From the NCBI GenBank assembly GCA_017499595.2, contig CM039004.1, positions 310,001 to 374,000 of the forward strand: 64,000 nt of DNA, written 5' to 3'. The notes below the pieces were generated by a model. It was not told where the DNA came from. It saw only the letters and a program-made list of their open reading frames with translations, and made no database searches. Positions 1 through 47,700 of the stretch are shown in pieces (within the stretch, counting starts at the first letter, position 1; the number at the start of each line of letters is the position of its first letter). The position numbers and the translations under genes are program-made. The DNA comes from Psilocybe cubensis (Eukaryota).

Positions 1-1228
1 TCCCTCACCGGGCTCCGGGATGTCGGGATGGACTGCTACCCAGGAGCATGCGAATATTGTTGCGAAGCAGCTCCAGATGATATCCCATATCGATCGTTGA
101 TCTTGACATGCGCATGTCACAGAGGCAGATGTTGTATCCCTCAACGTGAGTTCCCTTGCATGAGCTTGAAGAGGGAAAGCTTTTGTAGGGTCTCTTGATA
201 GGTACGATACAAGAAGTATAAAGAATATCATGGGGTCGCTTTACAGTGCTACTCGATGCCGATATGTGTTATAAAGAGATGGACATTCCCCCGAGTGACA
301 TGGCATGTCATCACCCTTAACATAGATTTTCTTCAGACCCTATCTATGTCATGACGTACAAATCAGAACTCATATTTGCAAATTATAAAGCTAGTCGTTG
401 TCGGCGAGCAATCCTCTCTCCTGGAATAACTCGAAAACAATAAAAATATGTGGAATAAGGTAGTCAATATCTTATTGCTGGTCCGATGAGAGGTAAGGTC
501 ACTGGAAGACACAGCGCAAAGGCTCTTGCAGACGGGCGCTTCTCTCCCATTTTCAACTGCGCTTGGAGCATCAAATGAACGTGAGATTCGGCCTGGTGGG
601 AGAAAACCTGTTTATGAATATGAAAAGTGATCACGGGTGTTCAAAGTGATGTAACACTAGATAAGGATTAATGAAAGAAGTACGTGTGGCGAGAACGAGG
701 GGCGGTCACTATTTGCATACTACTTGGGACAGCAACATAAATATCCAGCGCCCCGCCCACGTCTAAAATTTATTGGGACCCCGTCTTCTGGTTCGGTATA
801 CGACAGACAGACCTACGAGCTTCACCATGACGCAACTAGGGCTTGAGTGGGATGCTCTGTGAAATAGACGATCCAATATTCACCTTCAATTCCGCTGATA
901 TGCGCCAAGTACTCATTGAGGCTGTTACATGCCTGGACCTATCATAAAAGGTTTGTCCCGGAAAGAATAGAAAGTTTCATACTAAATCGTCCTTGCAATC
1001 TTTTGAAATAAGGGAAAGGATTTGGCGTTTGACCTAGCCTGCGGGGGAATCTCAACTTGGGCCATTTAGCGGCTTTGAGTCTGATTTCCGTCAGCCTTTG
1101 GATTCTTCCAATATTTATATCAGACCGTCAGAAATCTTCATTCACCTGGATACAATACTTTGGTATTTCTTCGTTCAATTTTCCTACCATACAACAAACT
1201 TCGTTATTCAACACTATTTTCTGACCCG

Positions 1229-3582: not shown

Positions 3583-3885
3583 ATGGGTTTTACTAGTAAA
3601 GGCTTAATTCAGTAGTATAGAATGTTCAAAGATTCTAGTCCCTGTCTTTCATAGATCCATTTGTGCTTGTTTTCGAATGCTCGTTCCAATCTTTGTCGGC
3701 TATCGCAAAAGACGTGTCTGGTTCTCCATTCAACGTGATATTTATGAAATTCTCTATAAAAACGCTTTCCAAAAAGCAGTAACCTTAATACAAAGAATTT
3801 ATCAGTCGAGGTATGTGTCTCTTTGCCTGAATTAAAATGTTATATTCATGAATAGTGCTATTCTCCAATCAGACTCCATACGGAA

Positions 3886-4200
3886 ATGCTCACAGGAGCT
3901 GGATATGTTTCATTCCCACCCCAGGGATCCCTAACGGTAGTGTTTGCAATACAGGAGAAGGAATACAACTTCATTGGGAGGTTCACCAAATTACCCTTTT
4001 CTTTTGTTTCCAACAACGCTCGAATTTCCTTTGAAACCATTGAACAAGTGAAAGCCGTCTCTGGGTTCGAATCTACTATCGGGCCTAAAAACTTGTCTAT
4101 TGTGTTTTCCAATGGCGTTACTGTCAATGGACCATTGGATATGCCAGTGTTTCCACCTGGCCAATACACTGGAGTAGCTCAACACATTCCAAATGCTTGA
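3886..4200 (+). CDS. Small beta-rich protein, paralog 1 of 3 (putative Vap-like barrel)
   Basis: 104-aa ORF aligns with the ORFs at 10936 and 14267 (F.G.F, NGV.V.G.LDMP..P). TATA box near 3756 and a 5'-UTR intron at 3811-3872. Confidence 0.8.
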   Translation: MLTGAGYVSFPPQGSLTVVFAIQEKEYNFIGRFTKLPFSFVSNNARISFETIEQVKAVSGFESTIGPKNLSIVFSNGVTVNGPLDMPVFPPGQYTGVAQHIPNA

Positions 4201-4762
4201 TGCTCAAGACATGGCAAAGGAGTAGATGATAATTTTCTAGAATGAGTAATACTTCGTGTCAAATGTAATCGCAATGCAGGCATAGGCCAACGACATAGAG
4301 TGACACTTGATTAATGAATGTTTAACGTTGTCGGGTCGACTTGGCAAGTCTATTACAGGTACTAGGCTCGTACCCAGTCGTTTCGTAAAGTTTGTCGTCC
4401 AAATACGACCACAACAATGTGCAAACAACGGCAAAGTAGTAAATAGCCTGGTGCCACAGGGATGTTGCCGCATTTTAAATCTCCGATGGTGATGGTTCCT
4501 GAAATATTTAGTATCCATGGTTATGTTATTTTCCAGCGCTATTCAGATCCTTGACTGCTCTTAGATTCTCTGACGACCATCCGCCATGGTGTCATAATTC
4601 AGAGCCACTTAATAGACACGTGTATTATTAGATGCAGCGTCTCGTTAAAGTATCCGGTTTGGAGAACGGATTCTCAGCACACGGCGGGGCATCTCTTTTA
4701 CACATTTATTGACGCATATACAGATCTCGTTCCTCCCCAAGTCATTTCAAGTTAGCTATGGC

Positions 4763-5431
4763 TCAGTCCAAGTCGTCCTGGCTAATGAATTGCCACTGAG
4801 GTAACGGACTCTTGTTGTCCCCAAGTCCAATTTGCTGAACCACGAGCTAGGAGAACCAATGTTCGTCTTCAACTCAAAAGTGCCCGAAGATTAATGGCAA
4901 CATACATGTGCATTGCTAACTGTAACAGCGTTGATTGAACCGATTTCATGAGATTGTTGTTCTATGCTGAAGAAAAGGTGTATCGTAACAAATTTTATAG
5001 GGTCATTGACGCATCAAATACTTACATGTAGGTGTTGGCGGATGCGTCAACCTGGGTGAGAACCCAGTCTACGATTGTCCTGCTATAGATGACATCCCTA
5101 CCGGAATTGTCTAATCCGAATCCTCCGATGACTGGGCCAATGTGTATGTTTGGATTAGTTGGTTGGGTGATTTTGTACGTGTTAGGGCTTGAAGAATCAG
5201 CACGAACACCCCACTATAACACATAATTAGCGTTGATGTGCTATATTATGCAGCAGCATTTTCGAGAGAACATGAACCTACAATTTGATTCGAATTGTCA
5301 GTTGTAATCTGCGCCTGTACAGTGATAGGAGCGCTGATATCGCCTCGGGTTGCGTAATTTCCACGAGCAAAAGGCCAGGATATGTTTGTAGGTACAACGC
5401 GAATGAGATAGTTACCGTCGGAGAGGGCCAT
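4763..5431 (-). CDS. Clitocypin/mycocypin-like beta-trefoil protease inhibitor, copy 1 (4 exons)
   Basis: MALSDGNYLIRVVP...ARGNYAT...QI|W and C-terminal PQWQFISQDDLD*. Resembles clitocypin as I recall it (SLEDGTYRLRAV..VGGEYAT..QIW..PAWRF). No signal peptide. Paralog of the 6282-6945 gene. Confidence 0.75.
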
Positions 5432-6281
5432 TTCTGTATTCAAGGAGGTTGTCTCTAAGTTTTTGCCACCCAGTGTACGTGGATACTTAAACTATTTCCT
5501 TCTCCTATCAGGTACCTGAATCCACCATTACAAGGCAGATATCCGACAGATGCTATTCCCTAAAATGCAAATAATCTGACGAATACATCGGAGTGTCAAC
5601 GTTCAGGTCTCAGGCGACGCCCATGGCAATCATTTTAAATTTTTCATGTTATAGAATTTATTTCTATATTTATTTGTTCCTGGTTGGCAGTATAGGCATC
5701 TCTCTGATGATCCGCTGACCAGGACCTGATTCTTTCACTCGCTTCACCGTTTTTGTAAGGTTGAAAATGCAATTTTAACTATCTCTGAGAAGAGATAAAT
5801 CTGTAAACAAATGGGCTTGATACTGTATCCCTACAAATAGTAACAATATGTAGCATAATCCGTACTGATGTTCTTTACCATAATGAAGTCAAGGGTTATT
5901 TTTAGCACAGTCTGACAACAACGTTCCTAGATATTTATCCGTAATTTATTGTCATCATTACTGTTGATTTTGAATTCTGATCTATTTCTCCGTAGTTTAA
6001 AAGAGGGAGCACTGCTGAATGTATTTATGAAAAGGGGACAGATTCATACCTCTGGAACCATCCGAAATTTGTTTGACCAGAACTATTAAGATGTATGACC
6101 AATTCTCCACTTCACTGGCAAGCAGGATCTTCTTCTGAAATGCTGACTCATTTCAGGAACTTAGAGGCACGGCCATATCCAAAAAAGCTCAACATTTAAC
6201 AATTTAAATCATTTTACACAAAAATAACTCTGTAGCTAGAACGCGAAGGGACTCAAACTTGTCAACGGGTTGGAAATGTAA

Positions 6282-6945
6282 TTAATCCAAATTATCCTGG
6301 CTGATGAATTGCCACTGAGGCAAAGGTCCCTTGTTGTCTCCGATTCCAATTTGTTGAACAACGAGCTATTTATTACCGTTTTCAGCACGCAATTACCCTC
6401 GTCAATTAGATATGCTACTTACGTTTGAATTCTCGACAGTCACGGCGTTGATCGAACCAATTTCATGGTCTTGACTTTGTATACTGCACGACAAAGTACT
6501 TCTTAATTTGAATGCTATAACAGAAAGAAAGGCCTCACATGTAGCTGTTCTCTGTTGCGTTCACCAGGGTTAATACCCAATCTAAAATGGTCGTGCTCAG
6601 GATCACATTGTTGGTTGAAGCGTCAATCCCGAATCCTCCAATGACAGGGCCAATGTGAATGTTGGGGTTTATTGGTTGAGTGATCTTGTACGTGTTTGAA
6701 TTAGAAGAGACTGTTTCAACCCTCCACTAAATTTAAGGACATTCAGTATAATATTTCCAAATCAATGGCGGTTACGTATCAAAATGATAACATACCACTT
6801 GAGGAGAATCGTCCGTTGAAATCTTAGGTTGAGCAATAATGGGCGAATTGATCTCGTTGCGGGTGGCATAATTTCCACCCACAAAGGGCCATGAGACGTT
6901 TGCAGGTATAGAGCGAATCAGATAGTTTCCGTTGGAAAGAGACAT
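6282..6945 (-). CDS. Clitocypin/mycocypin-like beta-trefoil protease inhibitor, copy 2 (4 exons)
   Basis: MSLSNGNYLIRSIPANVSWPFVGGNYAT...PQV|WRVE...HIGPVIGGFGID...PQWQFISQDNLD*. Same intron positions as copy 1. Confidence 0.78.
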
Positions 6946-26397: not shown

Positions 26398-27109
26398 ATG
26401 GCAACGGTGGCGGGTACACGACTCACAGGCCCAAGATAAGATCAAAATATATACCGTAAGTGTTCTGTTCCCTCACAAGTAAACAATCTGACAAGTACCT
26501 TGGCACTTTTCACAGGTGCGAGATGTGCTCCAGCGCGAACCTGCAGCGACTGTAGGGAACGAGGGAGTCATCGAGGGTTGAGCCGGAGGACATAGGTGAT
26601 GCGTCAGCGCTCACCTTTTTCCTTCCGGCTTATACTACCGCGATATCGATGGCCGGGTGCGTGGGAATTCCGCGCACACCGTCCGCGATGGCTCGAGAGC
26701 TCTATAAAAGGCGTCTTCGAAGCAAAATTTAGTCGGATAGGGGTGTTTTGGTAGGATTGAGATCAAATTAGCACGCAATAAATATATTTGATTTATAACT
26801 TCCAATCCCTTTCTTTTTGATGTATATGCAATTTGAAGTCTAGCATTAGACATCCCCGACCTCAAACTAAAACTCATGAAATTTGGGATCTTCACGCGTG
26901 TTCTCCTTCACACATTTGAACCCGAACACCAATACCATGGCCTCCATCCTACCCTATTTGTGAACCAGAATATACATGTACAAACTGTCCTCTCCAATCG
27001 AAGACAGAGTCTGAAGTTGCGTGCCATAGGCACTTACGCTCTGAATTTTCTCATTTTTGCCCTACCCTGTGTTGCTTTCTGTTGGCACAGGAGCACTTCA
27101 GAAACGAAG

Positions 27110-27357
27110 TTCGGCGGTCTCATTGACGGGATTGGTATTTTCACGGCAGACCCCGCACCACTCGTATATAACAACCGGCTCTACGTTTTCCTGGACCATG
27201 ACAATGATGGGGCCACCCATTTTAACATGACCGATTGGCGCCTCTTCTCGACGGTGGATATGGCTAACTGGCAGTGTCATGGGTCTTTCCTAAGCCTTGC
27301 ATACTTATCTTGGGCAGACGAAAATGCCTGGGGTCCCCAGGTAATCCCATGAAACAA
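27110..27357 (+). pseudogene. GH43 5' fragment
   Basis: [55 protein letters not shown]...WGPQVIP* is a copy of 16791-17080 with a short deletion and a CGA>TGA stop, joined to GH43 3'-flank sequence. Confidence 0.95.
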
Positions 27358-28603
27358 AAAGTTCTAGTTCTTCTAGATGGAAAACTACGCACGCACATGT
27401 ACTTTTTGCTGAACACACTTGAAATTGTATTTGAATATACGTTTTTTTCATGAAATTGCCTAAAAGCGAAATATATATACATGATGTTAGCTCAAATAAA
27501 CCTCTAATCCATTCCATCAAGGTACATACTGCCTTTCCCAGTCAGGGAATACCTTAATTCACACATTCGTCTAGTTTAGAGAGTCGAATATATCAAATTT
27601 TTATTGATTTTCGGGACCAGCATTTCAACACTTGCATTTAATTCAAGTAACCTAGAACAGTCACCACGTGCATATCCAAGATTATTCAGAAGACCCCATA
27701 TCTTAGCCTAACATAGACTGAAAGTGGAGGATCCCGCACCGTCCCGACTCGTAACACAACTCACCAAGTACACATACGGCAGGGTGCCCTCCTCCGTCCC
27801 TATCTGGAGTCGATTGGTCTCTCTTAGAGAGTTTTGGTGGTTGTTGAAGAAGTGGATGTAGACAGTACGTACAGCGACGTTTCCACAAAATATAACCTGG
27901 TTTAACTCACTTTCCTCATCCTCACTCCCTTCCCATGCATTCATTTTCTCAGGGGTTCTCCTTCATTGCTTTGCTCATCTCTCGGCACCCTTGCATGTAA
28001 GTCATCTAATCCCTCTTCGTAGTCTCCAGAGCCAGCGTGTCGCGTCCCTGAGATAGACAGACCCAAGACAGTGGTGAACTCACTCACCCATTCATTTACA
28101 CGCCATTTCAACATCATACCACGAGCCCTCTTGCTCTCAACATTAGGCAAGTCAGATTTCTGCGACTCGGCTAACCGCTGTCTTTGTGGTTTCCAACGCA
28201 AGCGCGTCGTCTCCCAGAGTGTTATACACAAAATTCGTTGGCAAGAAATGTTGAGGCCCAATAAACAGAAAACACGGCACTCTGCCACGAGGCTAAAGAA
28301 AAGACTATGTTTCTTGCGATGAGGCATTGTGGTGTCCCAAATCCGAGTGGCGGAAAATAAGAGGAGTTATATTGCCTCATTGTGTGTATGTGTGGGAGAA
28401 AAGGTGATTTTGACAGTTGCAGCGCTGATGAACGACTAAATAGTGAGTCAGAAGATCGAGACTCGGCACTGGTTAATGAGCCTGGGATTTTTTTGTGTGT
28501 GTCGCCACTCAATTCCTATGTTTTGAGGGAAAAATCTGTTCCTTCCCTCCTCACACCGTTCTCTCTCTGCCCTATCGCACCATCCTCCTTTGCGCTTATC
28601 CCA

Positions 28604-30141
28604 ATGGCCCAGTACCAACAAGAATCCTTTGTCATCCCTTCCAACACCATTCTTCCTGGATCCTTTACTTCTTTCTTTGAATCAGACTGTGAGTATCCCA
28701 GTCGGTTTTATGGACAAAAGCTTGATCCTAATCGAATCTTCATGCCATAGTAGGACCGGAAGCACTCTTGGAACAGCATCTGGCACCGGAATCAAACGAT
28801 GATGAATCTCTACATCAACTCCAATGTGGTCCAAGTACGGTAGTAGAATCACCCGATTCGCATATTCCGTTATCCATGCCGTTTTCTGGCTTCGAGGGTC
28901 AAAATCCGGGCACATCTGAGTTTTTCTGTGAGTCTTTTAATTGAATACACTAGAAAGAGATGTCTAACAGCATACCGATTTTAGCCTCATATCCTCCTCC
29001 ATCAACATTGCCGACTAATAATACCTCAGTATTCCATCCTACAACTGAAGAGGAGATACGGTTGTTGGATTCATTGTACTCTTCTTATCCCTACACGGAG
29101 GAAGAGATATTGGGGGAGAATAGTTGGAAAGGTGAGCCGGTTTCACAACAATTTCATTGTTGATTATACACATAACTGATCACACTCGTCAGCGGGCACC
29201 CGTGCGTCCCCCCAGGCACACACTGAATCTGGGTGGGACACTTTTCCCCAAGACTCATTGTGGCCAACGAACCGCGCCCCAGTATTTTGGGGCGACTATC
29301 CGTCTTCCTCTATGGAAGCTTTGACGTTCCCCGCCACAAACGAGTATTTGCGCTCGATGCCAGGCCCCTCAACATTGTAAGCATTTACTGAATATCAACT
29401 TCACACATGCTAAACATATGTAAACATTATAGGCCTGGCACGGATGATCTGTACGCGACTGCTAATGTCGAAACTAGCATCCAAAATCATCGGCCTTTCA
29501 TGCCAGTGTCCCACTTTGGGACCTCTACTAATCAATATGGAAACGACTACCAGACCTGTATGTCCTGATACATCGTAGTTTGGGGATTTTAGACTCACGA
29601 TTCTTTCTATGCTTTTCTTTGATGTAGTCTCAAATACTATTGGAGAAGGTTTAGATAACAATATCAGATCCACAGGCGAACAGCAAACTGTCGATGATCA
29701 ATGCTCCGGGGATCACCCTGTCGAGCACGATTACAGTGAGCGCAACGCACATGGAAGGTATGTGTACCTGCCCCTTCTCCAGGAGTAGACGTTGACCAGA
29801 ATTTCTAACATCAAAAACAGCGCGTTCCAGAGGTATGTGGTCATTGAAATTTTATGTCCTTTAGAATGAAGGGAGATGTTTCCCATAGCGGTCTATATGG
29901 ACTTAACAATGCCTCGGAGTGGCTACCCGGGGCATATGAATCCCTCGAAGAGGAAGTACCGAACACCAATGCAGGTACATGGACGGACGAGTCCATTGTG
30001 CCGGAGCAGCCGGCTCCAAGCACCTCCCAGGTACAAGGCCACATACCCAGTTGTATGGGGGGCCTTGGTGTCAGCGTCACACGCGAACGCAAGAGGAGGA
30101 AGGAAAAGGGGTTCCGGTTCGTCAATCTAGCTGCTAGCTAG
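28604..30141 (+). CDS. Orphan repeat-unit gene, copy 3: intact 8-exon ORF
   Basis: Same exon structure as copy 2. Exons 4-5 are diverged but stop-free, with a shifted in-frame acceptor. Confidence 0.72.
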
Positions 30142-33015
30142 ATGGCGACGGTGGCGGGTACACGACTCACAGGCCCAAGATAAGATCAAAATATATACCG
30201 TAAGTGTTCTGTTCCCTCACAAGTAAACAATCTGACAAGTACCTTGGCACTTTTCACAGGTGCGAGATGTTCTTCAGCGCGAACTATGGATCGAGGGAGT
30301 CATCGAGGGTTGAGCCGGAGGACATAGGTGATGCGTCAGTGCTCACCTTTTTCTTCCGGCTTATACTACCGCGATATCGATGGCCGGGTGCGTGGGAATT
30401 CCGCGCACACCGTCCGCGATGGCTCGAGAGCGCTATAAAAGGCGTCTTCGAAGCAAAATTTAGTCGGATAGGGGTGTGTTTTGGTAGGATTGAGATCAAA
30501 TTAGCACGCAATAAATATATTTGATTTATAACTTCCAATCCCTTTCTTTTTGAGGTATATGCTATTTGAAGTCTAGCATTAGACATCCCCAACCTCAAAC
30601 TAAAACTCATGAAATTTGGGATCTTCACGCTTGTTCTCCTTCACACATTTGAACCCCAACACCAATACCGTGGCCTCCACCCCACCCTATTTGTGAACCA
30701 GAATATACATGTACAAACTGTCCTCTCCAATCGAAGACAGAGTCTGAGGTCGCATGCCATACGCACTTACACTCTGAATTTTCTCATTTCAACACTTGCA
30801 TTTAATTCAAGCAATTTAGACCAGTCACCACGTACATCGAAATATCGAAGATTATTCAGAACGCCCGTATTTTAGCCTAACATAGACTGGAATTCAAGGA
30901 TCACGCACCGTCCCGACTGGAGACACAACTCACCAACTACACATACGGCAGGCTGTCCTCCAACGTACCTATCTGGAGTCGATTGGTCTCTCTTAGATGT
31001 TGGAAGGGTAGATGTGCCGGATAGTATGTACATCGACGTTTCCACAAAATATAAAAAGAGGCCTGGTTTAACTCACTTTACTCATCCTCACTCCCTCCCC
31101 ATGCAGTCATCTTCTCAGGGGTTCTCCTTCATTACTTTACACATCTCTCACTAGCACCCCTGCTTATAAGCCATCTAATCCCTCTCTTCGTAGTCTGCAG
31201 AGCCAGCGTGTCGCGTCCCAGAGGTAAGCAGGCCCCAAGACAGTTGCGAACTCACTCTTAGGAAAGTCGGATGTCCGCGACTCGGCCAACTGCGTTCTTC
31301 GTGGTTTCCAGCGCAAGTGCATCGTGTCCGAGAGGCAAGCAAACCATGGTGGGGTGAATGAAAGGGCCGCCTTAATCGACGTCTACTCGTCTGAAGGTTA
31401 ACACATTCGAAGCGGCACCGAATTCCGATTCGTCAACGCTCCAATAAAAGGTGGGAGGTCCTGCTAGACAGTGAAACACAACGTGTCATGGAAAGTTAAA
31501 CAAGCAATGACACGACCAACTTGCTTCGATCAGTGTCGCTGGTCTGTATGGTGAAGCATGAGCGCGAGTGGTGGGATTCTAGGTGACTATGCAACTCGCG
31601 CTGTCCAACAGCGGTCCAGAAAGCATCCGAATCGGATTAACCCGTGCTGAGAACCAAAAGTGTATTATGTAAGTATAGTCAGAACGGCCTTCGGCTAGAT
31701 ATGCCGGCTCCGACTCGTGCTTGAAAGTATCGTGCCTGCACTTAGGCCGCATTGCACAAGTTCGGACAAGGCTATGGGAGTCTCGCACTTCCTCATGCAA
31801 ATAGAGGCTTCGACCGACGAGACCTCCCTGGGACATCGCGACGCCTAAAATATAGCGGTAGCACGGATCAAACGGAGTCGTGTGTAGTATTAATAATAAT
31901 AGCAGAGGCCAGCTGGATGGCGGTCAAAATGAAAATCGTAGGTTGACTGGCCTTTGTGAATTATTGAACATTATGGATCCATTGGAAGTTTCAGAATACT
32001 TGTATAAAGCAGTGAGTGCCTGGATATCTTGGTACCAATGGTGGTGTGTGTGTGAAGTAGCACTCGTGACTACGTGAAGACGCCCTCGCTCAGAATATTT
32101 GATAGACGCTGATATGTGAATCCAATGACGGCATCGGATCTATGTTTAAACAGAATAAAGAAATTGTGAAGTTGTTGATACGCCTTTTATATGCTGACTG
32201 GCTCGCAAAAAGACGTATCTCTTGAACGAACATCCTGTATGCCGTTCTTACAGGCCCCGTCTGACACCTGATACCCGTATAAACCCGAGAAATGTGATAA
32301 GACGGAGTGATCTAGCCTGGGGAGTAGTATGGTGGTATACCTTACACGCGTGTTCCTTCCGTACACAGAGTAATACAGTGTGCATCGTCCAATAAGATTT
32401 TAGTATCTTTGAGGGGGTAAGAAGGAATTCGGTAGCAGATTCTTGTGATAATGATCCTGTACCGGTCTTTTTTTCACACATGAAATAAGAACAATGGATA
32501 CCATCGCCGAAAAGAAATATTCTTCTTCTCGTTTAGGCATAGTGCCTGCGCACTTGCGATAGTAATCGATGGCACTCAACAGACCTAGGATACACAGTCG
32601 TGATGGATGTAACAACAACTAATCTATGTTATCTGTGATACACAAAATCTGTTGGGAAATGTCGAGGCCCAATAAACAACAGACAGGTCGCTCGGCCACG
32701 AGGTTAAAAGAATGACTGTGCTGCTTCCATGAGGTTCCATTGTAGTGTGGCGGGAAATAAGAGGAGGTATTTTGCCTCATGATCACCTCACTGTGTGTAT
32801 GTGTGGGAGAAAAGTTGATTTTGACAGTAGCAGCGCTGATACACGACTGAATAATGAGTCAGAAGCTTGAGACTCGGCACTGGTTAATGAGCCTGGGATT
32901 TTTTTGTGTATGTCGCCACTCGATTCCTTTGTTTTGAGGGAAAAATTCGGTTCCTTCCCTGCTCACACCGTTCTTTCTCTTTCCTATCGCACCATCGTCC
33001 TTTGCGATTACCCCA

Positions 33016-35002
33016 ATGGCCGAGTATTACCAAGATGTATCCTTTGATATCCCTTCGAGCACTTTTCCTCCTCAATCCTTTGCTCCCCTGTTTGAATCGG
33101 AACGTGAGTATCGCAGACGGCTAAACAACTCTTGATGTTGATCGACTCCTCATACAATCGTAGCACCAAAATCATTCCTTGAACAGTTTCTGGCACAGGA
33201 ATCCAGCGATAATGCATATTTACCTCCATTCCAATGTAGTTCAAGTACGGCTTATCCCAATGGCCCAGTACCAAGACGTATCCTTTGATATCCCTTCGAA
33301 CACCTTTCCTCCTCAATCCTTTGCTTCCCTGTTTGAATTGGAATGTGAGTATTGCAGACGGTTTTATGAGCAAATGCTTAATGTTGATCGACTCCTCATA
33401 CAATCGTAGCACCAAAATCATTCCTTGAACAGTTTCTGGCACAGGAATCCAGCGATAATGCATACCTACCTCAATTCCAATGTGGTTCAAGTACGCTTAT
33501 CCCAATGGCCCAGTACCAAGAAGAATCCTTCAATATTCCTTCGAACACTTTTCATCCAGGATCCTTTTCTTCCTTGTTTGAACCAGAATGTGAGTATTGC
33601 AGACGATTTTAGGGAAAAACGCTTGATGTTGATCGATTCTTCATGCCATAGTAACACCTGAATCACTCTTGGAACAGCTTGCGGCACAGGATTCGGATGA
33701 TTATACATCTGTACATCAATTTCAATGTCGTCCAAGTACGGTGGAAGCATTATCGGACTCGTATATCCCAATATCCACGTCTTTATCCGGTTTGACGGTC
33801 AAAGTGTTGGTGGGGAGCCTGTCTGTAAGTCTTTTGAGTTGAATATACTAGCAAGGGATGTCTAACTGAATACCGATTTTAGCGTTCTATCCCCCTACAT
33901 CAGGATCATCGACTAATGCCCCCACATTCCATCCCGGTGCGACTGAAGGAGAGGTACAGTTATTTGATCCATGGTACCCTCCTTATCCGTACACGGAGGA
34001 AGAGCTACTAGGGCAGAATAGCTGGCAAGGTGAGCTGATTTCACAACAGTTTTATTCTTAATTATACGCATAACTGATCACACCCGTCAGCGAGCACCCG
34101 TGCGTCCCCCCCGGCACACACTGATTCGGGGTGGGATACTTTGCCACAATACTCGTCTTGGCCAACAAACCGCGCACCGGTATTTAGGGGCGACTATCCG
34201 TCTTCCTTTATGGAAGCTTTGGCGTTCCCCGCCACAAACAAGGATGTGGGCTCGATTCCAATCCCCTCAATATCGTAAGCATGGGTTGCATATCAAAGGC
34301 GTCTGTTAATGAGGTCCAAACCAGCATCCACAATAGTCGGCCTTTCACGCCGCAGTCCTCCTTTCAAAACTCAAGTAATCAGTATGCAAACAACTACCAA
34401 ACCTGTATGTCCTGAAATACAGTAATTTTGGCCCTATTGACTCATGATTCCTGCTATTCTTTTCTTTGATGTAGTCCCAGATACTATCGGAGAAGGTTTA
34501 GGTAACACTAACATATCCACAGGCGAACAGCAAACTGTCGAGGATCAATGCTCCGGGGATCATCCTGTCGAGCACGATCACACTGAGCGAAACGCACATG
34601 GAAGGTATGTGTACCAGTTCCTTCTCCAGCAGTAGATGTTGACCAGAATTTTCAACATACAAAGCAGTGTGTTCCAGAGGTATGTGGTCATTGAAATTTT
34701 TTGTCCTTTAGAATGAAGGATTCTGACGAGACGTTTCCCATAGCAGCCTATATAGCCAGAACAATGCCTCGGAGTGGCTACCCGGGGCATATGAATCCAT
34801 CGAAGAGGAAGTACCACATACCTACGCAGGTACATGGACGGACGAGTCCATTGCACCGGAGCAGCCGGCTCCAAGCACCTCCCAGGTACAAGGCCATGTC
34901 CCCAGTTGTATGGGGGGACTTGGTGTAAGCGTTACACGTGAACGCAAGAGGAGGAAGGACAAAGGGTTCCGGTTCGTCAATCTAGCTAGCAGGCTAGATT
35001 GA
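33016..35002 (+). pseudogene. Orphan repeat-unit gene, copy 4 (most diverged; exon 1-2 module triplicated; 1-nt frameshift near 33791)
   Basis: ATGGCC(C/G)AGTA module at 33016, 33260 and 33505. GGTTTGACGGT lacks one base relative to the frame used by the other copies (could be a homopolymer assembly error). Confidence 0.65.
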
Positions 35003-36049
35003 CAATGGTGGTGGGTACACGACTCACAAGCCGAAGATAAGATCAAAAACAATACCGTAAGTGTTCTGTTCCCTCACAAGTAAACAATCTGACAAGTACC
35101 TGGGCACTCTTCACAGGTGCGAGATGTTCTTCAGCGCGAACCTGCAGCGACTGTAGGGAACGAGGGAGTCATCGAGGGTCGAGCCGGTAGACAAAGGTGA
35201 TGCGTCAGCGCTCACCTTTTTTTCTTCCGGCTTATACTACCGTGATATCGATGGTCGGGTGCGTGGGAATTCCGTGCACACCGTCCTCCATGGCTCGAAA
35301 GCGCTATAACAGGGCTCTTCGAGACAAACTTTTGTTGGATAGAGGTGTTTTGGTAGGATTGAGATCAAATTAGTACGCAATAAATAGATTTCTTTTATAA
35401 CCTGCAATCCCTTTCTTTTTGAGATATTTTCTATTTCATTAACATCATTTCACTGGCAAGTTCCAATAAGTCCCATTCGTTCCTCTTAGCAAATAAATTA
35501 CTCATTATATTAGGCACCCCCAATATCAAACTCGAAGTCCCGCTCATTCTCCTTCACATATCTGGGAACCCCAACATTTGACATTGCCTCCATCCTACCC
35601 TATTCATTATTTTTTCAAGTCATATCATCTGCAGAAAAAGAAAAAATTTAGTAGTGCTATGGTTGTATAATAGGCTGGGTAGTCTTGTTGACTGCCCCCC
35701 TATTTTATTGCTCCTGTAGCTTCCTACCAAAAGTCAGTAGATTCTGTAGATTTCTTAGTCATATATGTAGCTTTTGTAGTCTTCTGTAATTTTAATAAAT
35801 AGTATAATATTAATCTATAGGTACTACATTGCTAACTATATATTTTTATGCGCAATTTAATATTGAGTAAAAATCATTAATAGGACAGTTGGTATCATTA
35901 ATATCTTTATTAGCCATTCTACTCCGTCCAATTAGCTGACTTTGGATAGTAAGCCTCCATCCAGTCTAACAACATATTATACCTCTATCTAACTCTCTTC
36001 AACTTGTCTACTATCAGAATCTGTTAAGTAAATAACAACAGAAAAGATA

Positions 36050-36120
36050 TGGTTAGGACTAGAATCGAACCAATGACTCCCAAGTATGTTGCCAATACTT
36101 TACCACTGAGCTATATGACC
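36050..36120 (-). pseudogene. tRNA-like sequence (degenerate) inside the TIR element
   Basis: Reverse complement GGTCATA-TAGCTCAGTGGTAAAGT...GGTTCGATTC...TAACCA, 71 nt, with A-box, B-box and TTTT downstream; stems partly mismatched. Confidence 0.7.
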
Positions 36121-36305
36121 TATAAATAGATTGAGAGTTATATGTCAATATCCACTATTGAATCCATTATTTGGACTCTGTGTTGTGTTTGTTAACATTG
36201 ACATTAGTATTGTTGTTATTCCACTTATTCTATTCCATCTAATTCCATATCATAAAATCCCATAACTCAATTGACATTTACGCTATAGTCCATATTGTTT
36301 TGTAA

Positions 36306-36377
36306 AGTCTTATGGTCTACTGGTTAAGGACAGTCTATTTTTGGCTAAGGTTGACGGTTCAATCCTTGAGCAGGCCA
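36306..36377 (+). pseudogene. tRNA-like sequence (degenerate) inside the TIR element
   Basis: AGTCTTA-TGGTCTACTGGTTAAGGAC...GGTTCAATCC...CAGGCCA, 72 nt, with A-box and B-box, followed by TTTATTT. Confidence 0.65.
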
Positions 36378-37762
36378 TTTATTTCGCTCGCAGACTACAA
36401 AGTCTATAAGTATATTGTAAGTACTACTGTATGTTGCATGGGCCTTGATTATATAGTTTCCATAAATTACTGTATATTGTGAATACAATGTATTAAACCT
36501 ATGTAATGAAAATATATTAGATAATGATGTTATGTAAGGCTACTAAGTGCAAAAAAGGCTACTGGAAAGTGTGGTTACTACGGTGTCTACTGTAATATAG
36601 GTGTGTACTACTGAAAAAAACCTTTTCCGCTGATGATGTAACTTGAGAATCAGAATATACGCTTACAAACTACTCTCTGGAAACACACTCTGAGGTCGCG
36701 TGCCATACTCACTTACTCTCTGTTGCATTTCATTCTGCCTTGCGTTGCTTTCTGTGTCCTCACGGATATTTCAGAGACGAATTTAGATAGCTGCCTGTAT
36801 TATATTGGTTAGCCGGCTGACCCTCTGCGGCCTGAGAGCTCAGGCAATACTCGGACATAGTCACACAAGATTACCAAAACTGTAGGAATCACTGACAGAA
36901 GCAAGACCTGATCTTATGAGGTTGCCCTTCACGCCTCATTGATACCTCGATAATCGCACATCCATTTAAAATTGAGTTTCTTTCATGACAACGTGAGTCG
37001 AAATCGCGAAGTTTGAGTACTCTAGAGCCAAATCATCCATTTTCAGTTTCAGAATGAAGATGATATGTGATTTTACTTACTTCTAGTGAGCTCAACGCTG
37101 CAATTACGGTGAGAAATCAGACTGATACCTATCTTGATGTTCAATTTGTCAATAATATGTTTCTCCTTCACTTAGCGTTCGGGCTTTGGTAATCTCAACG
37201 AGCTCTCATGGATCCTCGGATCCATACCTATGCTTGAATAAAGAGCACGAGATACAATTGAGATAGTTTTGCACAATTCAATCCACTGCATTGTTTCAAG
37301 TTAAAGAAGCAAGTGGACTCAGCCTGAGGAAGAATTCTCTTTCAAATGACCTGGTCATTATGACAGATAAACCGCATCTCCTCCGGGACTCTCCACCCTG
37401 AAAAGTAGGGCCAGGAACGATCCAGTGGAAACACCTGAGGACGGCACAACAGCGGCACCCTCATATCCACAGGAAATGGTCCGATATTTTGCCATTTTCG
37501 GCCTAAAATCAGCTCAAAACCTAACAATCCCTTTGTTTAACTTGGGGTTAATCGAATCCCTTTCACCTCCCTTTCAACATCACCTCCCTTTTGTTTTTTT
37601 GTCCCTAGAATAAAAGCCTGACTCCATGCCACCTATCAAAATTCATTTTCTTCCGCAACTACAACAGGTACGCGTCCTCCCAGGTCAAGATGCATTTTGG
37701 TTATTCATCACTCGCTATAGCACTTACTATAATCAAGGAACTTCAAATCTGTATCGTAAGAT

Positions 37763-38845
37763 ATGCCGCTCAACAACGCCTTTACTCAGTCTACTGCTGA
37801 TGCCACCGTCTATTATGACTTTGGCGACGCTTCAGATGCTACGATCATCCGAGCTTCAGACACCACTATGGGTATGGAGGAAAACGAAGTGGAGGATATC
37901 CTGAACGACCTTGCAACGCCTTCTATCAGCAACGGGAACCCAACTACTATCAACACTATTGGTAATCCTCCATCGCCAACAGACAGTCGCCCCGAAACAC
38001 ATATGTTTCAACAATCCTTACCATCGAGTCCCCTTCGCGCGAGATTCAGTAACCTTGTTCTCCAGGCCGGTACCCCTCCACCCGTATTGCATCTGTTCCC
38101 TGAACTAAAGAGGGATGACCTTATACGTATCATGTCACACCAGCTGGAGGCTAGAGACCTCCACAGACTGCAACCAACCATTCACTCCGATGGTAGCCCC
38201 GACGTCGGCGAGAATATCGAAAACGCGACTTTCGATTCGCTTTACTTGTTACTCTTAAGATACTTTGAGATCGTCTCAATGTACTTTGCCCAAGACTACC
38301 TGATCACCCTAGCCTTCTTTGAATTCCTTGCCCATTTCCAGAGCATCTCGTCCAAGTATGAATGGCCAGCTGTGCGTCAATACACCCTTTCCTTCTTTGA
38401 TTGCCGTCGAGTGGAGATGTACGACTCTAATGACTATTCCGGATGGTTACGCCCTGACGAGGCGCTCTCCGAGAAGTACCTTGTAGGTCATGAAAAGGGC
38501 GGTGCACTGTCGTTGGTATCGTCGACAACTATTTCCATCCCCGATACTGCTCCCCCTCAAGTAGTTCCCCAACCGACGAATGTTAATAACTCAGACGAAG
38601 CATCGCGCAAAGCTACGTTGTTTATTGGGTTTTTATGGTGCGTGAATCACTCATTTTCATATATTTTCTTCTGTCGTTAACATGCGTCTTCGTTCTGTAG
38701 TAGCTTCGTCGGGTTAATATTGGCGGCAATCGTTATGATCCCATTCTCACTGGCTCGACTCCTATTTACTTCCAACAAAGGGGCTGAAAAACGCCTCGAG
38801 GAGACTGTGAAAGAAGAAGAAGAGAGCTTTGACTTTTATGATTGA
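37763..38845 (+). CDS. Protein with DIRS/Ngaro Gag (ORF1)-like helical domain and C-terminal transmembrane anchor
   Basis: Long first exon containing FPEL..IMSHQLEARDLHRL...YFEI...KYEWPAVRQYTLSFF..RRVEM...DYSGW..D..L..KYL. After intron 38638-38700 the frame continues TLFIGFLC|SFVGLILAAIVMIPFSLARLLF...FDFYD*. Confidence 0.7.
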
Positions 38846-39432
38846 ACATTCAGTCTTGAACTATTCATTGTTTGGGACTCGGGTAGTCCTCGACAATCCA
38901 TGCTCTGTTGTTGATTGTATAGTTTCTGTGTGACTTTTAGTTTCCATTAGCCATGTGTAGGATATTTCTCAATTTAATCGGTGTATAAGTCCCCGCGTCG
39001 GTCTCTGGGAACGATTTGAAGCCAGTATTGAGGTTGACTCCAGACAAGGCTCTAGGGTAACTTCCCGGGCTGTTCAAAACATGGCCTGAATCACCATCCA
39101 GGACTCACCGATGAAGCAACGATGAAGGCAGGGGTTTGATGGCAGACAGTACATACTGTTCCCACGATGATAATCACGAGAAAGCCCTCCAGGTGATTGC
39201 CAGCGCGGACTATTTTGCTTACGCTCAACCATCACGACGACGCCCCGGAATGCTTCGAATCGTCTCGATACACTATTACGGACATACTTCGCAACAATAA
39301 TAGACTAGGCGAGCGGTAGACGATGGTCATGTGGCCGCCCCTCACAGTTTTACCGCCGTTCAATGTCAATTCGCCAGCAATATTCAGACATATAAGGCGC
39401 GCAGGATGAGGAGCACTTTGAAGAGGCCCGAT

Positions 39433-41899
39433 ATGTTACCTCTAGCCGTTCTTCTCCTATCGTTCTCACGTCAAGCCTTTGCTATACCATCTGCGACGAG
39501 TTTGCAAGCTGATCTTACGTTTTTATTCCAAAATGACCTCAACTGTGCGTCTTTTCCTTTCTAACGGTCTGCTCTACTAAAGCTGACTTCTAATATCAGG
39601 GACAACCGCTGCTGATCACAAAGGGACAATTCTCATCAACAAGTTCGGGACCAAGGAAGAAGCTACCGCCGCATGCGCGGAACTTAACGAATCGATACTT
39701 CCGACAGATGGCCCATACTTTGATTCAGACATGAAGTCGCTGCTGACATATCTCAACGTCAATTCGCGATACTACAAACAAAAATTCTGGGTTGATTCTA
39801 CACCAGATGCACCATGCTCCGTGGTTTCACTGCCTGGATCCCTGCAATCCGTTCCATGCAACAGTCGATTCCCAACGTTCTGCTCTCAAAGCTCCCCTTA
39901 TCGTAGAAACACGGACGTTGATCCGGATCCCAAGTTTCGGGTGCAGGTCAAGTCGAAAAAGTTAACGATCGTTGGGTATGTTCGCTCCATTCTTCAGCCT
40001 TGATAGTTTCGTGACCAACATTCTTGTAGAACGCGAGATCATCTATCATTTCGGTTCCTCGGAATTCCCTACGCCGACCCGTTCGAACGCTTCAGTTATT
40101 CTAAATTGTATAGTGGAGCTGGCACGATCAACGCCCTGAATTATGGCTCGCCATGTACCCAGTCCAGTGGAGGAAGTGAAGATTGTCTGTTCCTCAATAT
40201 ATATACCCCATATCTCCCTCGAGATCCAGCTCGATCAAAGAGTCTCAAACCTGTCATGTTTTGGATCCATGGCGGTGGCTTCACAGATGGCCAGGCAAGC
40301 GATAGCATCTACGATGGAGGAAATATGGCCAGCCGAAGTGATGTGGTAGTTGTCAGTATCAATTATCGGTGAGTTATCTGCCCCTAGCGACCATTTCCCT
40401 CGCTCATTAGACATCAGATTAGGCGCTCTGGGGTTTCTGGCACTAGAAGATGGGGTAACTAATGGCAATTTTGGTATCGCTGATCAGGTTCGTCTTTCTC
40501 ATTCGTTAATATGTGTCTACCAACCATCAAGAATAGATCACTGCTCTCCAATGGGTGCGTGAGCACATCGCAGAGTTTGGTGGCGACCCGTCCTTGGTCA
40601 CCATCTATGGCCAATCTGCCGGTGCTGGCTCAGTTCGTGCCCTTCTTGCATCACCTCCTGCGTTTGGCTTGTTCCAAGGCGCCATAGCTCAGAGCAATCT
40701 GGGAGGCTTCGGCTATGCGTCTACCTACTCGAAGTATCTTACTATTCAGCAGCAATATGCCTCTTTCGGAGCCCCCCTTGTGTCTTCTGTTGGTTGCGCT
40801 GGCAGTGCCAACATTCTACAATGCCTACGGGCGCTACCTGCATCCAGTATCACTTCCACTCCTAATGGTCCCAGGTACCACCATTTTGAATCTGACCAAT
40901 TTTGAAACTGGTTAAATGTATCGCATAGGTATATTGTAGTCGATGGGAAGTTCATTACTACGGACCAACTTGAGGTAAATGGATCCGGCCAGGCAGCAAG
41001 AGCCCATGTAATGTTTGGATGGACAAGAGACGATGGCTCCGACTTCATCGGTCCATATCCCACCCCTGGATCGACACTCGCAGGCGCTTTACTTGCAGCT
41101 GGGTATGACACATACTCACTAAGCACTCTATATCGTCTAATCATTTCGACAGGCTTAGCAGCGACGTGGTGGATAAAGTTGTTGGTTCTGACCTTTTCCC
41201 CACCCCCCTTGGTCCTAACTCGCTGGAAAACCTGTTCAATCTAACGAGCCGGATTGGCACAGACGGTCAATTCCGGTCAGTCTCAGAAACCAGTGAAAAG
41301 AAATCACACGAACTCAAACATGCTGTAGATGCATAGACCAAGCCACCGTTATCTCAGCTGCGAAACACGACGTCTTTGCTTCGGTGTGGGCATATCAGTT
41401 TGACCGTAGCTATGGAGGCTATGAGCCTGTTCCTGGAACGTGTGATCCTCCCTCAACACCTGCATTCCCCAACGGTGACCCTAATCTGCCATATTATCGG
41501 TGCGTCAGGCGCGAGCCGAAAAGGACATTCATCATGTACTGATATCATATATCTCTCTCCCGAAGATGCCACTCCGGAGAATTATACTACATGTTTGGAA
41601 ATCTAGGGCAGGATTCACTGCCTTTCCGCGACGAACACGATCTGCTCTTGTCTCAGTACGCTGTGGACATGTGGGGCTCGTTCGCACGCACACAAAATCC
41701 CAATCCCTCGCCTTACTTCCTTACTGCTCGTGGATACACCAACACAGCCAACATGCTACGCGAAACAGGGCGTTGGAACAAGGTCACACCGCGTGAGAAG
41801 GCGCCTCTAAGAATTATCGATAACCAGCAACGGAATTCGCAGTGGCTGGAAGAAGAACAATGTGATTTGCTAGGGTATCCTTTTACCTACTTTGGATGA
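39433..41899 (+). CDS. Secreted type-B carboxylesterase (alpha/beta hydrolase)
   Basis: Signal peptide [17 protein letters not shown]. Motifs [55 protein letters not shown] (nucleophile elbow), [11 protein letters not shown] (catalytic His). Confidence 0.95.
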
Positions 41900-44740: not shown

Positions 44741-47700
44741 ATGTCGAATAGTGCAACCTCCATTCCGAATGTCGCAGGAAAGCCACTCGTAAAACGATCA
44801 CAGGGTGCATGCGCTGAATGTAGAAGGAAAAGGAGTGAGTGCCAAGTTCTTGGTAGCCCAATTTCGACTGAGCAATGCGTTTATCTCTAAAGGCAGATGT
44901 AAATGTCCATTATATATGTACTTCTCTCTCCTAATCATTGTAAACAGGCGACAGAGCCTTGCGAAATGGCCAGAAATGCACAAATTGTGAAAATGCCGAT
45001 ATCGACTGTGTTATTGCTGGATCGCAGGTACCGTACACGTTCCCTGTTCATGTTGCTCACGGCCAACAGTATGATTGACGTAGAAATCTCAATTGCAACA
45101 ACAACAAGAGTACGTGCTGATAACCCATTGATCACGACGTTGATTGAACGCCTATCAGATATATTCGTATTTTGGAGAAGAGGGTAAAGAGATTAGAAAA
45201 CTACATCCAAGCAGTAAGGTGGAATATTGATGTCGCTGATCTCTGTGTAACGACTTAGTGTTCGGTGTAGCTTTTCCCTAATGATGACGTCGACGTAGTC
45301 ATCAGTAAACCTCCTACGTACTGCGACAGTCTTGTAAACGCGTATGGATGCTAATCGACTTTACAGATCTCTTCCATCGCTTAGCACCTCGAAGGATAAT
45401 GTTACCGATGGCTTGATTGTTTCCAACTCGAAACAGGGAGATAATTCGGATATCTCTGACGAAGATGACATGGGTTATGTTGAAATAGCAAATCAGCTTC
45501 GTCAATTTTCTTTGACTCCCATCATATCACCTCGATTTATCGGTCAAGGAAGGCAAGTTGTCGATGTTCAATTTAGTTGAAAATTTTATCGAATGTGATT
45601 TCAGCCCAATCATGGCTGCCAAACAGGCTGCTACCATGAGGAGTTTGGTCACTGGTCAGCCTGACACTGGATTAGATCCGAAGCACTATATGAGATCCCA
45701 ATTTTGGTCCATGAATCCAGTACGTCTTTTTGCTATGTTTTCCTCAGGGTACTCCCAGTCACGATTTATGGCTACGTACTAGTGGGAGCACGCCTACATT
45801 ACATCTTCTGAATCGACATACGTTTATCCTGAGCCTGATCTCCTCCTGGAGTTGGTGACGGTGTATTTTGAGAAGACAAATGCCCTTATTCCGATTGTTC
45901 ACGAGCCTTCTTTTATGAAAGGTCTCCTGTCGGGAAAGCATCACGTTGATCCATCGTTTGGACAAATTGTGCTTTTAGTCTGTGCTAATGGAGCTAGATA
46001 TTCTACAGACCCCCGTGCATGCTATGCACCAGAATCTCAGCATTCGAGTATGTCTAACGGTTGGCAATTTTTCCGTCAAGTACCGTTACATCGACGGCAA
46101 ATGTTCTACACAACTACCGTCTATGATTTACAATACTACGCTGTCAGTAACCCCTTGATTAGAGTTGACCTGAAACTTATGATGATCCAGCTTGCTGCAA
46201 TCTTCGTGAATGGTTCAGCGCTGTGCTCTGTTTCTTCCAATATTGTGGGCATTGGACTACGCTACGCCATAGAAATAGGAGCTCATCGCAGAAATGGCCA
46301 AACTCAACCTTCATTTGAGAACGAACATTCGAAACGGGCATTCTGGTGAACACAGAGATCTTTATCATTCCTTGATCCCTAATTTTTCGTTACTCTCAGG
46401 GTACTTTTCTGTTTAGATGCTCTTCTAAATTCGTTCTACGGCAGACCTGCTGGAATCTCGCATGACAGGTATATTCACCCTGATCTTCAACTATAGACCA
46501 GTCTCCATTTGTCTTACTAATGATTAGTTTTGATTTGGAGTATCCAGTTGAATGCGACGACGAATACTGGGACCACGAAGACCCACAGAAACGTTTTAGA
46601 CAACCGCCTGGAAAGCCCTGTTCCATGTCGAACTTTATCCACTTGATCAAGCTGTGCGAAATCCTCAGTTTCTCGTCCAGAACCCTATATTCCACGAAGA
46701 AATCTAAACTCGTTTCAGGGTACTTTGGAGAGGACTGGGAGATGCGAATGGTTGCCGAACTGGATTCTTCACTCAATAAATGGAGAGCAGCGCTACCTTC
46801 TCACCGTATGTGCAACATTATCTTATCTGTCTATCTGGTCCTTATTAGGAAGTATCGCCCTATAGTCCAATGGGATCCTCTGCGAGAAGACGAGAAGTTC
46901 TTCCAACAGTCAGCTAATCTAAATTCCATATTTTTCTACGTACAGATTCAAGCCCATCGCCCATTCTTGATTAAAAAATCGAAGCTATCACTCACATCGG
47001 TCATCATGTGCACGAACGCTGCTAGATCATGTTCTGGGATACAGGAAGCTGCGATGGCGAGGGATTGTCGCGTACTTCCTCATACAACGGTAAGTTTATC
47101 TCTGGCTCGACACAAGATCATTTCTGATGTTTATTTAGTATATAGCATTTACCGCGGGGATAGTATCTGTTCTTTGCCTATGGAGCAGTCGTTGCCCAGG
47201 TTACGTTGGTGATCCACAGAAAGAATCAGAAAATCTTCTTAGATGTGTCAGTGTCCTCAAGAAATGCGAAAAACTGTATGACCTCTTCTTATCTCTCTTC
47301 CAGCATCAAGTTGCTGATGCATTTCAATTTCACGTAGGTGGCATAGTGCTGGCTCGTTTCGGTGATAACAATTGTTCCAAAATATGGTGTTTTGTAATTG
47401 AACTCAGTCTTCTAGTGATGTCCTGTGTGAAGCTGGCGCGCTTGATAGATCTGAAATTGATGGTCCTTCACCCGAAAATTCCAGCGGCACCATTCAGCTA
47501 CCTGACCCGTTCAAAACCATATTCTCTCCGCCGTTACAAGATGATGCAACTTGGTCGAACAATTGGGACTACACTGGACTGTTCCTCGCAGAAATGGGAC
47601 ATCGTGAGCTACAGAGCTCCGAGATAAACCATCCTCAATTGGCACCGTCAGGACTAGGTCTGCCCAATAATTCTGATCCATCAGTGAGCAACACTCCTAT

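Follow-up and report, generated by a model that had tools for sequence, protein, structure and literature searches.

An apparently single-copy gene of Psilocybe cubensis with the core of a Ngaro-type Gag and a predicted C-terminal membrane anchor

The present analysis concerns a two-exon gene on the forward strand of a 64 000-nucleotide (nt) stretch of Psilocybe cubensis DNA (contig CM039004.1, positions 310 001 to 374 000; the whole stretch is called the window hereafter, and coordinates are those of the window). This gene, at 37763–38845, had been singled out from its sequence as a candidate domesticated retrotransposon Gag with an added membrane anchor (the original prediction). We lean, with a little more than even confidence, towards a reading in which the gag of a Ngaro-type retrotransposon was captured and became a single-copy Psilocybe gene that kept the Gag core, lost the zinc knuckle and gained a transmembrane (TM) anchor, so that its product would be tethered to a membrane.

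RESULTS

Structure of the gene and of its predicted product

The ATG at 37763 is preceded by an in-frame TAA (37757–37759), and the frame remains open until the TAA at 38678–38680; the next open reading frame (ORF), at 38681–38845, shares this frame. Removal of the coding intron (Table 1), which was modelled from sequence logic and from the database entry and has a TTAAC ∼20 nt 5′ of its acceptor, leaves 1020 nt and 339 codons. The resulting protein of 339 residues is identical, letter for letter, to the NCBI entry 'hypothetical protein JR316_0007649 [Psilocybe cubensis]' (stored here as P0003). The coordinates and the gene model first proposed, an intact ORF spliced onto a second exon, are therefore right. 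The upstream spliced leader proposed with them corresponds to a plausible candidate intron of 53 nt (Table 1). A second TAG at 38701–38703 makes a tandem TAGTAG acceptor (38698–38703); use of the second AG would drop one serine of the TM segment (S293) and keep the frame.

Table 1. Features of the gene and of its product in the window
Feature	Position	Strand	Remarks
Candidate intron of the 5′ untranslated region	37668–37720	+	53 nt, GTACGC...TAG; from sequence only
Coding exon 1	37763–38637	+	Codons 1–291 and two bases of codon 292; product matches P0003
Acidic motif EENEVEDIL, residues 39–47	37877–37903	+	Within the low-confidence N-terminal region
Putative Gag-derived helical core, residues 101–249	38063–38509	+	HMM envelope; pLDDT mostly >90
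Ser/Thr/Pro-rich linker, residues 250–283	38510–38611	+	Position of the S-rich linker and zinc knuckle of the relatives
Predicted TM segment, residues 284–314, split by the intron	38612–38767	+	Hydropathy; AlphaFold2 helices 285–304 and 307–310
Coding intron	38638–38700	+	63 nt, phase 2, GTGCGT...TAG; holds the in-frame TAA
Coding exon 2	38701–38845	+	Remainder of the TM helix, acidic tail 38768–38842, TGA stop 38843–38845

In an AlphaFold2 model built from a 74-row alignment, residues 1–100 have a predicted local distance difference test (pLDDT) of 39–57, and the core is all-helical, with values mostly >90 across residues ∼108–245 and disordered flanks. The only strong hydrophobic stretch lies in the 19-residue hydropathy windows that start at residues 282–298 (maximum 2.77). 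The TM segment predicted there is ∼27–31 residues long and includes P306 and R311, its modelled helix 285–304 crosses the exon junction, and a net charge of −5 is carried by the last 27 residues, from 313 onwards. These values bear out the earlier claim of a hydrophobic helix that is completed by exon 2 and followed by an acidic tail. No hydrophobic segment was detected at the N-terminus, where the first 60 windows reach only 0.17. With one TM segment, 25–27 residues before the C-terminus, and no signal-like segment at the other end, the layout is that of a tail-anchored protein, the bulk of which would be cytosolic.

The core belongs to a family of Agaricomycete proteins

The window protein has no Pfam match, even at E ≤ 10. 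An exhaustive HMMER search over 1.84 billion representatives retrieved a family of 140 representatives at E ≤ 1e-3, of which 22 reach E ≤ 1e-10 and 3 reach E ≤ 1e-30, the query being counted each time. The matches all fall on query residues ∼100–250, and none of the 140 representatives carries a Pfam family on the core domain. The motifs from which the core had been recognized (FPELKRDDLIRIMSH, YFEI and YEWPAVRQYTLSFFDCRRVEMYDSNDYSGWLRPDEALSEKYL) are found in the protein, and their agreement is far beyond chance because they fall on conserved columns of this family of at least 140 representatives. Those members that have a named source all belong to the Agaricomycetes (Coprinellus, Ephemerocybe, Tephrocybe, Termitomyces, Mycena, Marasmius, Sphagnurus, Dichomitus and Jaapia). 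PDB sequences, searched both with the protein and with the profile of the family, showed no match on the core, and a word-index search with the family alignment gave at least 13 matches among 7999 scored candidates and no further members of the clade described below.

The usual architecture of the family consists of a variable, often coiled-coil N-terminus, a core of ∼160 residues, a serine-rich linker and a C-terminal zinc knuckle with the pattern C-x2-[FW]-N-x-G-x-C ... C ... R-x-H-x-C-x2-C-x4-H (CCCH/CCHC). A simple regular expression detects the knuckle in 51 of the 143 stored proteins, and in a PDB profile search it is this part only that shows a weak similarity, to fingers of the CCCH and nucleocapsid kinds (best E 0.032, others at least 1.7). 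By the same expression and by comparison of the tails, the knuckle is absent from the window protein and from two relatives, P0004 and P0005.

Three family members, P0015, P0062 and P0018, are fused to MIF4G, to a short-chain dehydrogenase (adh_short) and to a weak match to KDZ transposase, respectively; these are probably annotation chimeras at sites of transposable-element (TE) insertion. Within the ESM Atlas, the clusters nearest to residues 100–250 of the window protein come from Basidiomycota, Oomycota and Cnidaria, and 43% of the members of the look-alike cluster that is commonest in Cnidaria carry a SAP domain. This hints that the fold may be shared with Ngaro-like ORF1 proteins outside fungi and is taken as a lead only.

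Relatives of the core precede pol sequences of the Ngaro type

In P0145 of Ephemerocybe angulata (1293 residues), the one protein returned by a search for longer sequences, the core (165–324) is followed by the knuckle and by a reverse transcriptase (RT) domain (RVT_1, 576–714, 2.9e-14); there is also a weak match to RNase H (RH) and a match to Phage_integrase (1085–1252) at 2.5e-4, below the Pfam cutoff. Against the PDB, the protein matches the RT/RH of Ty3 Gag-Pol over 582–936 (E 2.7e-4) and, marginally, Cre over 997–1250 (E 0.013). By eye, its C-terminus contains LRSGE, HSFRRG and GRW...Y, which we take to be the motifs expected of tyrosine recombinases (YRs). Core, knuckle and RVT_1 (3.9e-12) are likewise present in P0008 of Coprinellus aureogranulatus (1202 residues), and in P0066 the core runs on into the pre-RT segment.

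A metagenome scan with an element-type alignment gave three loci. At L003, the core (915–1520) lies upstream of RT–RH–YR (3927–6302); the ∼1.9 kb between the pre-RT segment and RT (2000–3927) match nothing in the polyproteins and may represent an insertion, an intron or decay. L002 holds a spliced core-plus-knuckle gene (142–1231, forward strand) with no pol in the 8 kb downstream, next to two large, mutually similar genes for multi-pass membrane proteins (1537–4584, reverse strand, and 5187–6917, forward strand). At L001, the downstream sequence is short. The domain is thus found upstream of pol sequence in four independent cases (P0145, P0008, P0066 and L003) and as one solo copy (L002). The window core itself matches P0008 at E 1.2e-18, and tblastn of the polyproteins onto the window gives E about 1e-23.

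The order in P0145 is RT–RH–YR, with only ∼60 residues between RH, which ends near 936, and YR, which begins near 997. Pfam lists no methyltransferase in this protein and there is no room for one in the gap, which indicates an organization of the Ngaro type and not of the DIRS1 type (for the latter layout, see PMC3266345). In the portion consulted of a survey of Agaricomycotina, Ngaro elements are reported and DIRS elements are not (PMC3783388). Homologues do sit upstream of RT–RH–YR (P0145 and L003) or of RVT_1 (P0008), as the original prediction suggested looking for. Its assignment of the core to the ORF1/Gag of DIRS/Ngaro retroelements holds as regards Gag homology, given the four pol-linked cases and the nesting described in the next section, and as regards the Ngaro type; the DIRS1 type drops out.

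Phylogenetic position and shared features of the Psilocybe clade

An unrooted maximum-likelihood tree was built from 130 domain rows; of the 143 hits, 10 were left out for matching <100 positions of the profile, and 3 more for a length below 125 residues. The window protein groups with P0004 with a Shimodaira–Hasegawa-like approximate likelihood ratio test (SH-aLRT) support of 99, and both group with P0005 of Psilocybe cyanescens (SH-aLRT 98). This trio is nested in a 10-row clade (SH-aLRT 92), among whose rows are both of the proteins with RT and four with the knuckle. Since the domain precedes pol in relatives and the window clade nests among such elements, a Gag origin of the window gene is well supported by sequence comparison.

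Three features are found in the trio only, compared with the element Gags. The first is an N-terminal region, YYD...DTT...EE.EVED[IL]L, in which 7 of the 9 residues of the acidic motif (E39, E40, E42, V43, E44, D45 and L47) are invariant. The second is an SSTT..I..D linker that replaces the knuckle, and the third is the L.IG.. that opens the hydrophobic segment, with L286, I288 and G289 invariant. The relatives share these features with the window protein at 52% and 38% identity. Moreover, P0005 ends right after the W codon where the window has TG/GT, and P0004 reads W-V-D... at this point. Since both ends fit an unspliced reading of GT[AG]nGT, the protein ends suggest that the splice donor, and hence a downstream exon, is conserved in all three members. 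A metagenome scan with the alignment of the three members matched 190 pattern stretches, none of which was a relative. The EVED[IL]L motif resembles what we take to be an acidic dileucine sorting signal ([DE]xxxL[LI]), which would fit a cytosolic N-terminus; for the YYD motif near the N-terminus, a presumably FFAT-like reading was considered.

A second knuckle-less clade (P0016, P0079, P0032, P0068 and P0106; SH-aLRT 97) has hydrophobic tails of 18–25 residues, and P0026 is likewise knuckle-less with a hydrophobic tail. We rejected this clade as proof of recurrent anchoring: the tails are no longer than read-through into non-coding DNA would produce (the mean open run in T-rich non-coding DNA is ∼21 codons), and all five members come from assemblies whose gene calls may ignore introns. 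These tails could be genuine anchors, or they could stem from read-through into introns rich in T; we take the clade as a lead only.

Fold and predicted self-association of the core

Foldseek searches with the core returned nothing at E ≤ 1e-3 from the PDB (30 matches listed, all with E of at least 3.9) or from BFVD (all with E of at least 0.13). VIA-align against 48 161 chains gave a best Z of 5.1, to generic helical bundles, with no capsid among the 50 matches listed. The comparison with capsid folds that had been proposed thus recognized none, and because no specific fold was recognized, 'Gag' is used here as a name given by position and knuckle.

A homodimer model of residues 100–250 passed the modelling test with a score of 0.50, versus 0.00 for the best of three controls; the runs share at least 89% of their contacts and the pLDDT of the partner is at least 80. 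Of proteins solved as pairs, 21 of 30 reach the mark applied to such models, and of those solved as single chains, none of 23 does; for eukaryotes, it is reached by 17 of 29 pairs, but by only 1 of 7 when there is no older solved relative, and by none of 30 single chains. The modelled interface is symmetrical and is formed by two long helices (residues 158–197) in which many hydrophobic positions are conserved in the family. The model supports a role of the core in self-association, which is what one would expect of a Gag.

Genomic context and copy number

The polyproteins P0145 and P0008 were compared by tblastn with the whole window. Matches were confined to 38060–38500, all else having E of at least 2.5, and no RT, RH or recombinase was detected in the 64 kb. 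No direct or inverted repeats of at least 25 nt are present in 36500–40000, and there are no split or terminal repeats around the gene. The earlier statement that none of these element parts lies nearby was therefore correct. Neither a knuckle nor a pol remnant is detectable near the gene. A second copy was not found in the window by tblastn, and a word-index search over 5.8 billion clusters retrieved only the window protein (one member, on one contig) and P0004. From the database proteins and the window, the gene appears to be single copy.

Upstream, at 25000–36500, three segmental copies of ∼3.7–4.9 kb follow one another in a tandem tract of 12 kb, with 71–98% identity to the reference pieces; these copies do not bracket the gene. 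A tandem repeat of ∼245 nt is nested in the tract at about 33028–33800, and no Pfam family was found in the ORFs sampled from it. The neighbours downstream are ordinary host genes. A multi-exon carboxylesterase gene (COesterase, PF00135; E 2.5e-26, 1.7e-24 and 4.7e-9 on three exons) occupies 40007–41899 on the forward strand. It is followed by a gene for a Fungal_trans transcription factor (PF04082, 4e-8) at 45783–47212, also on the forward strand, which takes in 45783–46349 and the sequence beyond.

DISCUSSION

Domestication weighed against other origins

Domestication of the Gag is a plausible, indirectly supported explanation of these sequences, based on the apparent single copy, the intact and diverged clade, the inferred splice donor and the polymorphism within the species. 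The locus is present in contigs of three other sequencing runs with the same species label (X2, X3 and X4, the last with 0.63 of the sampled words). Among strains, the 1020 coding nt contain 15 single-nucleotide polymorphisms (SNPs), 8 nonsynonymous and 7 synonymous, over 783.3 nonsynonymous and 233.7 synonymous sites, which corresponds to a pN/pS of 0.34 (binomial P = 0.037). The intron has 5 SNPs in 63 nt, about five times the polymorphism of the exons. Exon 2 has none, and its only change is an in-frame deletion of 3 nt at 38811, in a glutamate run, in two other strains. One strain variant, H134Y (38162, codon 134), restores the tyrosine of the family consensus (DLYKLD, for DLHRLQ in the reference strain).

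Several observations weigh against domestication. The polymorphism signal is weak, with P = 0.079 when the one SNP seen only in run X1 is omitted (14 SNPs), and the evidence of constraint is modest because polymorphism is lower in the non-coding flanks (3 SNPs and 1 indel over 363 nt upstream, none over 255 nt downstream) than in the coding sequence. The clade is very divergent (38–52% identity, branches 0.16–0.49), and such long branches could reflect relaxed constraint, positive selection or paralogy; the window protein also has L at 163 and N at 223, where P and G, respectively, are near-invariant in the family. The search of sequencing runs found no run on record as RNA that contains the stretch. 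Run X1, for which the RNA label is a guess, yielded two short contigs of 202 and 182 nt inside exon 1 and none on the flanks or junctions, and run X5 had no match at the locus. These results indicate neither expression nor silence. To these points must be added the capsid-like fold that was not recognized and the lack of direct support for the restriction mechanism discussed below. Finally, solo gag genes without pol exist elsewhere, as at L002, so that a solo copy is not by itself a sign of co-option.

Alternatively, the gene may be a stranded relic, that is, a solo ORF1 from a decayed or rearranged Ngaro element, automatically predicted as a two-exon 'gene' and without host function. Its frame would then be open by chance or through recent origin, and the TM helix would be a by-product of fusion to adjacent sequence. 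The absence of a matching run on record as RNA, the fast evolution of the clade with changes at near-invariant residues, the solo gag beside host genes at L002 and flanks no more polymorphic than the coding sequence all fit such a relic, as does the adjoining 12-kb tandem tract, a mark of an unstable neighbourhood. However, the stronger argument for constraint, which we draw from sequence comparison, is that three frames have stayed open at 38–52% identity while sharing features outside the core, namely the acidic motif, the linker with SSTT, the first residues of the TM segment and the inferred donor. By a rough estimate, ∼300 codons that had diverged neutrally to this extent should carry several stops or frameshifts. 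The pN/pS value, the fivefold higher polymorphism of the intron, the in-frame nature of the sole coding indel and the lack of a detectable knuckle or pol remnant nearby likewise argue against a relic, which we regard as possible and rather unlikely.

Considerably less probable is a gene that is still mobile, as part of a non-autonomous or unusual Ngaro lineage with a membrane-anchored Gag moved in trans by a pol encoded elsewhere. Its nearest relatives are indeed element-borne Gags, and other knuckle-less members, namely the second clade and P0026, have hydrophobic tails. Yet no terminal or split repeats surround the gene, no pol lies within 64 kb, a single protein copy was found (one member on one contig) and three other runs with this species label contain the locus, with differences of a few per cent, whereas the tails of 18–25 residues match what read-through would give. 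The reverse direction, in which an old host membrane-protein family donated the ORF1 domain to Ngaro elements, would fit the unrooted tree if the root lay on the Psilocybe stem, which would make all other rows one clade. It is very improbable for a clade of three members from one genus that is placed within a supported subclade of 10 rows with knuckle and pol, when the other 127 rows span many Agaricomycete orders.

A model for the origin and function of the gene

Under the favoured reading of a captured and domesticated gag, the gag (ORF1) of an Agaricomycete Ngaro-type retrotransposon would have become a Psilocybe gene that kept the helical Gag core of ∼150 residues, and this core probably self-associates by means of two long helices that are conserved. 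The CCCH/CCHC zinc knuckle at the C-terminus, presumably the nucleic-acid-binding part in the relatives, would have been lost. The gene would have gained an acidic, disordered N-terminal extension with the conserved EE.EVED[IL]L motif and, across a new intron, a C-terminal TM helix with a short acidic tail. The product would be tail-anchored with a cytosolic N-terminus, its dimerizing core facing the cytosol from an endomembrane; the endoplasmic reticulum or the endosomal system is the likeliest site.

Such a tethered, knuckle-less core could co-assemble with the Gag of related Ngaro elements and hold or mis-sort it at the membrane. The outcome would be a dominant-negative brake on retrotransposition, following the same logic as Fv1 or Ty1 p22. 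Interference with Ngaro Gag seems the most economical function; a new membrane scaffold is the alternative, and the present data do not separate the two. More specifically, the protein might act as a membrane-tethered decoy that dimerizes with the Gag of incoming Ngaro elements and redirects it, either to an endomembrane or into the vacuolar route, possibly via EVED[IL]L, a proposal that we consider doubtful. Were it true, the gag of a YR retroelement would for the first time have yielded a host restriction factor, and indeed a co-opted gene of any sort; as part of this proposal, the same conversion, from knuckle to hydrophobic tail, may have occurred more than once in Agaricomycetes.

Comparison with known systems

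Gag-derived restriction factors offer one comparison. In mouse Fv1, sheep enJS56A1 and yeast Ty1 p22, a truncated or altered Gag reportedly associates with the Gag of the element and poisons its assembly or trafficking. The mechanism proposed here is the same; those factors are functionally proven, whereas the window protein is known from its sequence. None of the three is known to act through a C-terminal membrane anchor, and the gag-derived restriction factors known to us all come from LTR retrotransposons.

Tail-anchored proteins, clients of GET and EMC, have a single TM segment near the C-terminus and no N-terminal signal sequence. The window protein resembles them in its TM segment, 25–27 residues from the C-terminus, and in its predicted cytosolic bulk; it differs from typical members in the length of that segment (∼27–31 residues) and in the presence of P306 and R311 within it.

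The ORF1 of Ngaro-type elements in Agaricomycotina has been described, in the part of the survey consulted, as a 'putative GAG' (PMC3783388; Muszewska et al. 2013). Like these proteins, the window protein has a core with homology (E 1e-18 to 1e-23) to the domain at the N-terminus of knuckle–RT–RH–YR polyproteins. Unlike them, its gene has no knuckle, pol, recombinase or repeats, possesses an acidic N-terminus, an intron and a predicted C-terminal TM anchor, and appears to be single copy. The family as a whole, in which a CCCH/CCHC knuckle comes after the helical core, represents a Gag domain family of Agaricomycete Ngaro-type elements that was not yet catalogued. Its definition would aid TE annotation in mushroom genomes, where such ORFs are now called hypothetical proteins or are fused to neighbours (MIF4G, adh_short).

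Co-opted gag genes include Arc, RTL/PEG10, PNMA and SCAN in animals and Crtg12-14 in fungi (PMC8321522; Wang and Han 2021, here and below for the portion of the text consulted). The fungal Crtg genes are single copy, and Crtg14 has gained an intron and is fused to the membrane-associated PEX14. All co-opted gags of that study derive from LTR retrotransposons (Ty3/Gypsy, Ty1/Copia or Bel-Pao), only three of them being fungal, and its consulted text mentions DIRS or Ngaro 0 times. The window gene resembles these genes as a retroelement gag that stands alone, with a particular parallel to Crtg14 in the gain of an intron and the link to a membrane. It differs from them in its YR-retroelement source and in a range of apparently one genus, and it is known from sequence alone. 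A co-option screen of 1237 fungal genomes based on Pfam domains likewise mentions neither DIRS nor Ngaro in the sections consulted (PMC10799480); such a screen could not see the core domain, since it is not modelled in Pfam (0 of 140 relatives). Full-text literature searches returned no report of a co-opted YR-retroelement gag, which is not proof of absence, and the papers retrieved for the locus-tag prefix of the database entry were all unrelated.

Co-opted gag genes are thus a known kind, and the source in a YR retroelement is plausibly the new part. If the gene is functional, gag co-option extends to tyrosine-recombinase retroelements, and a dimerizing Gag core on a membrane tether offers a simple architecture in which to test host interference with such elements.

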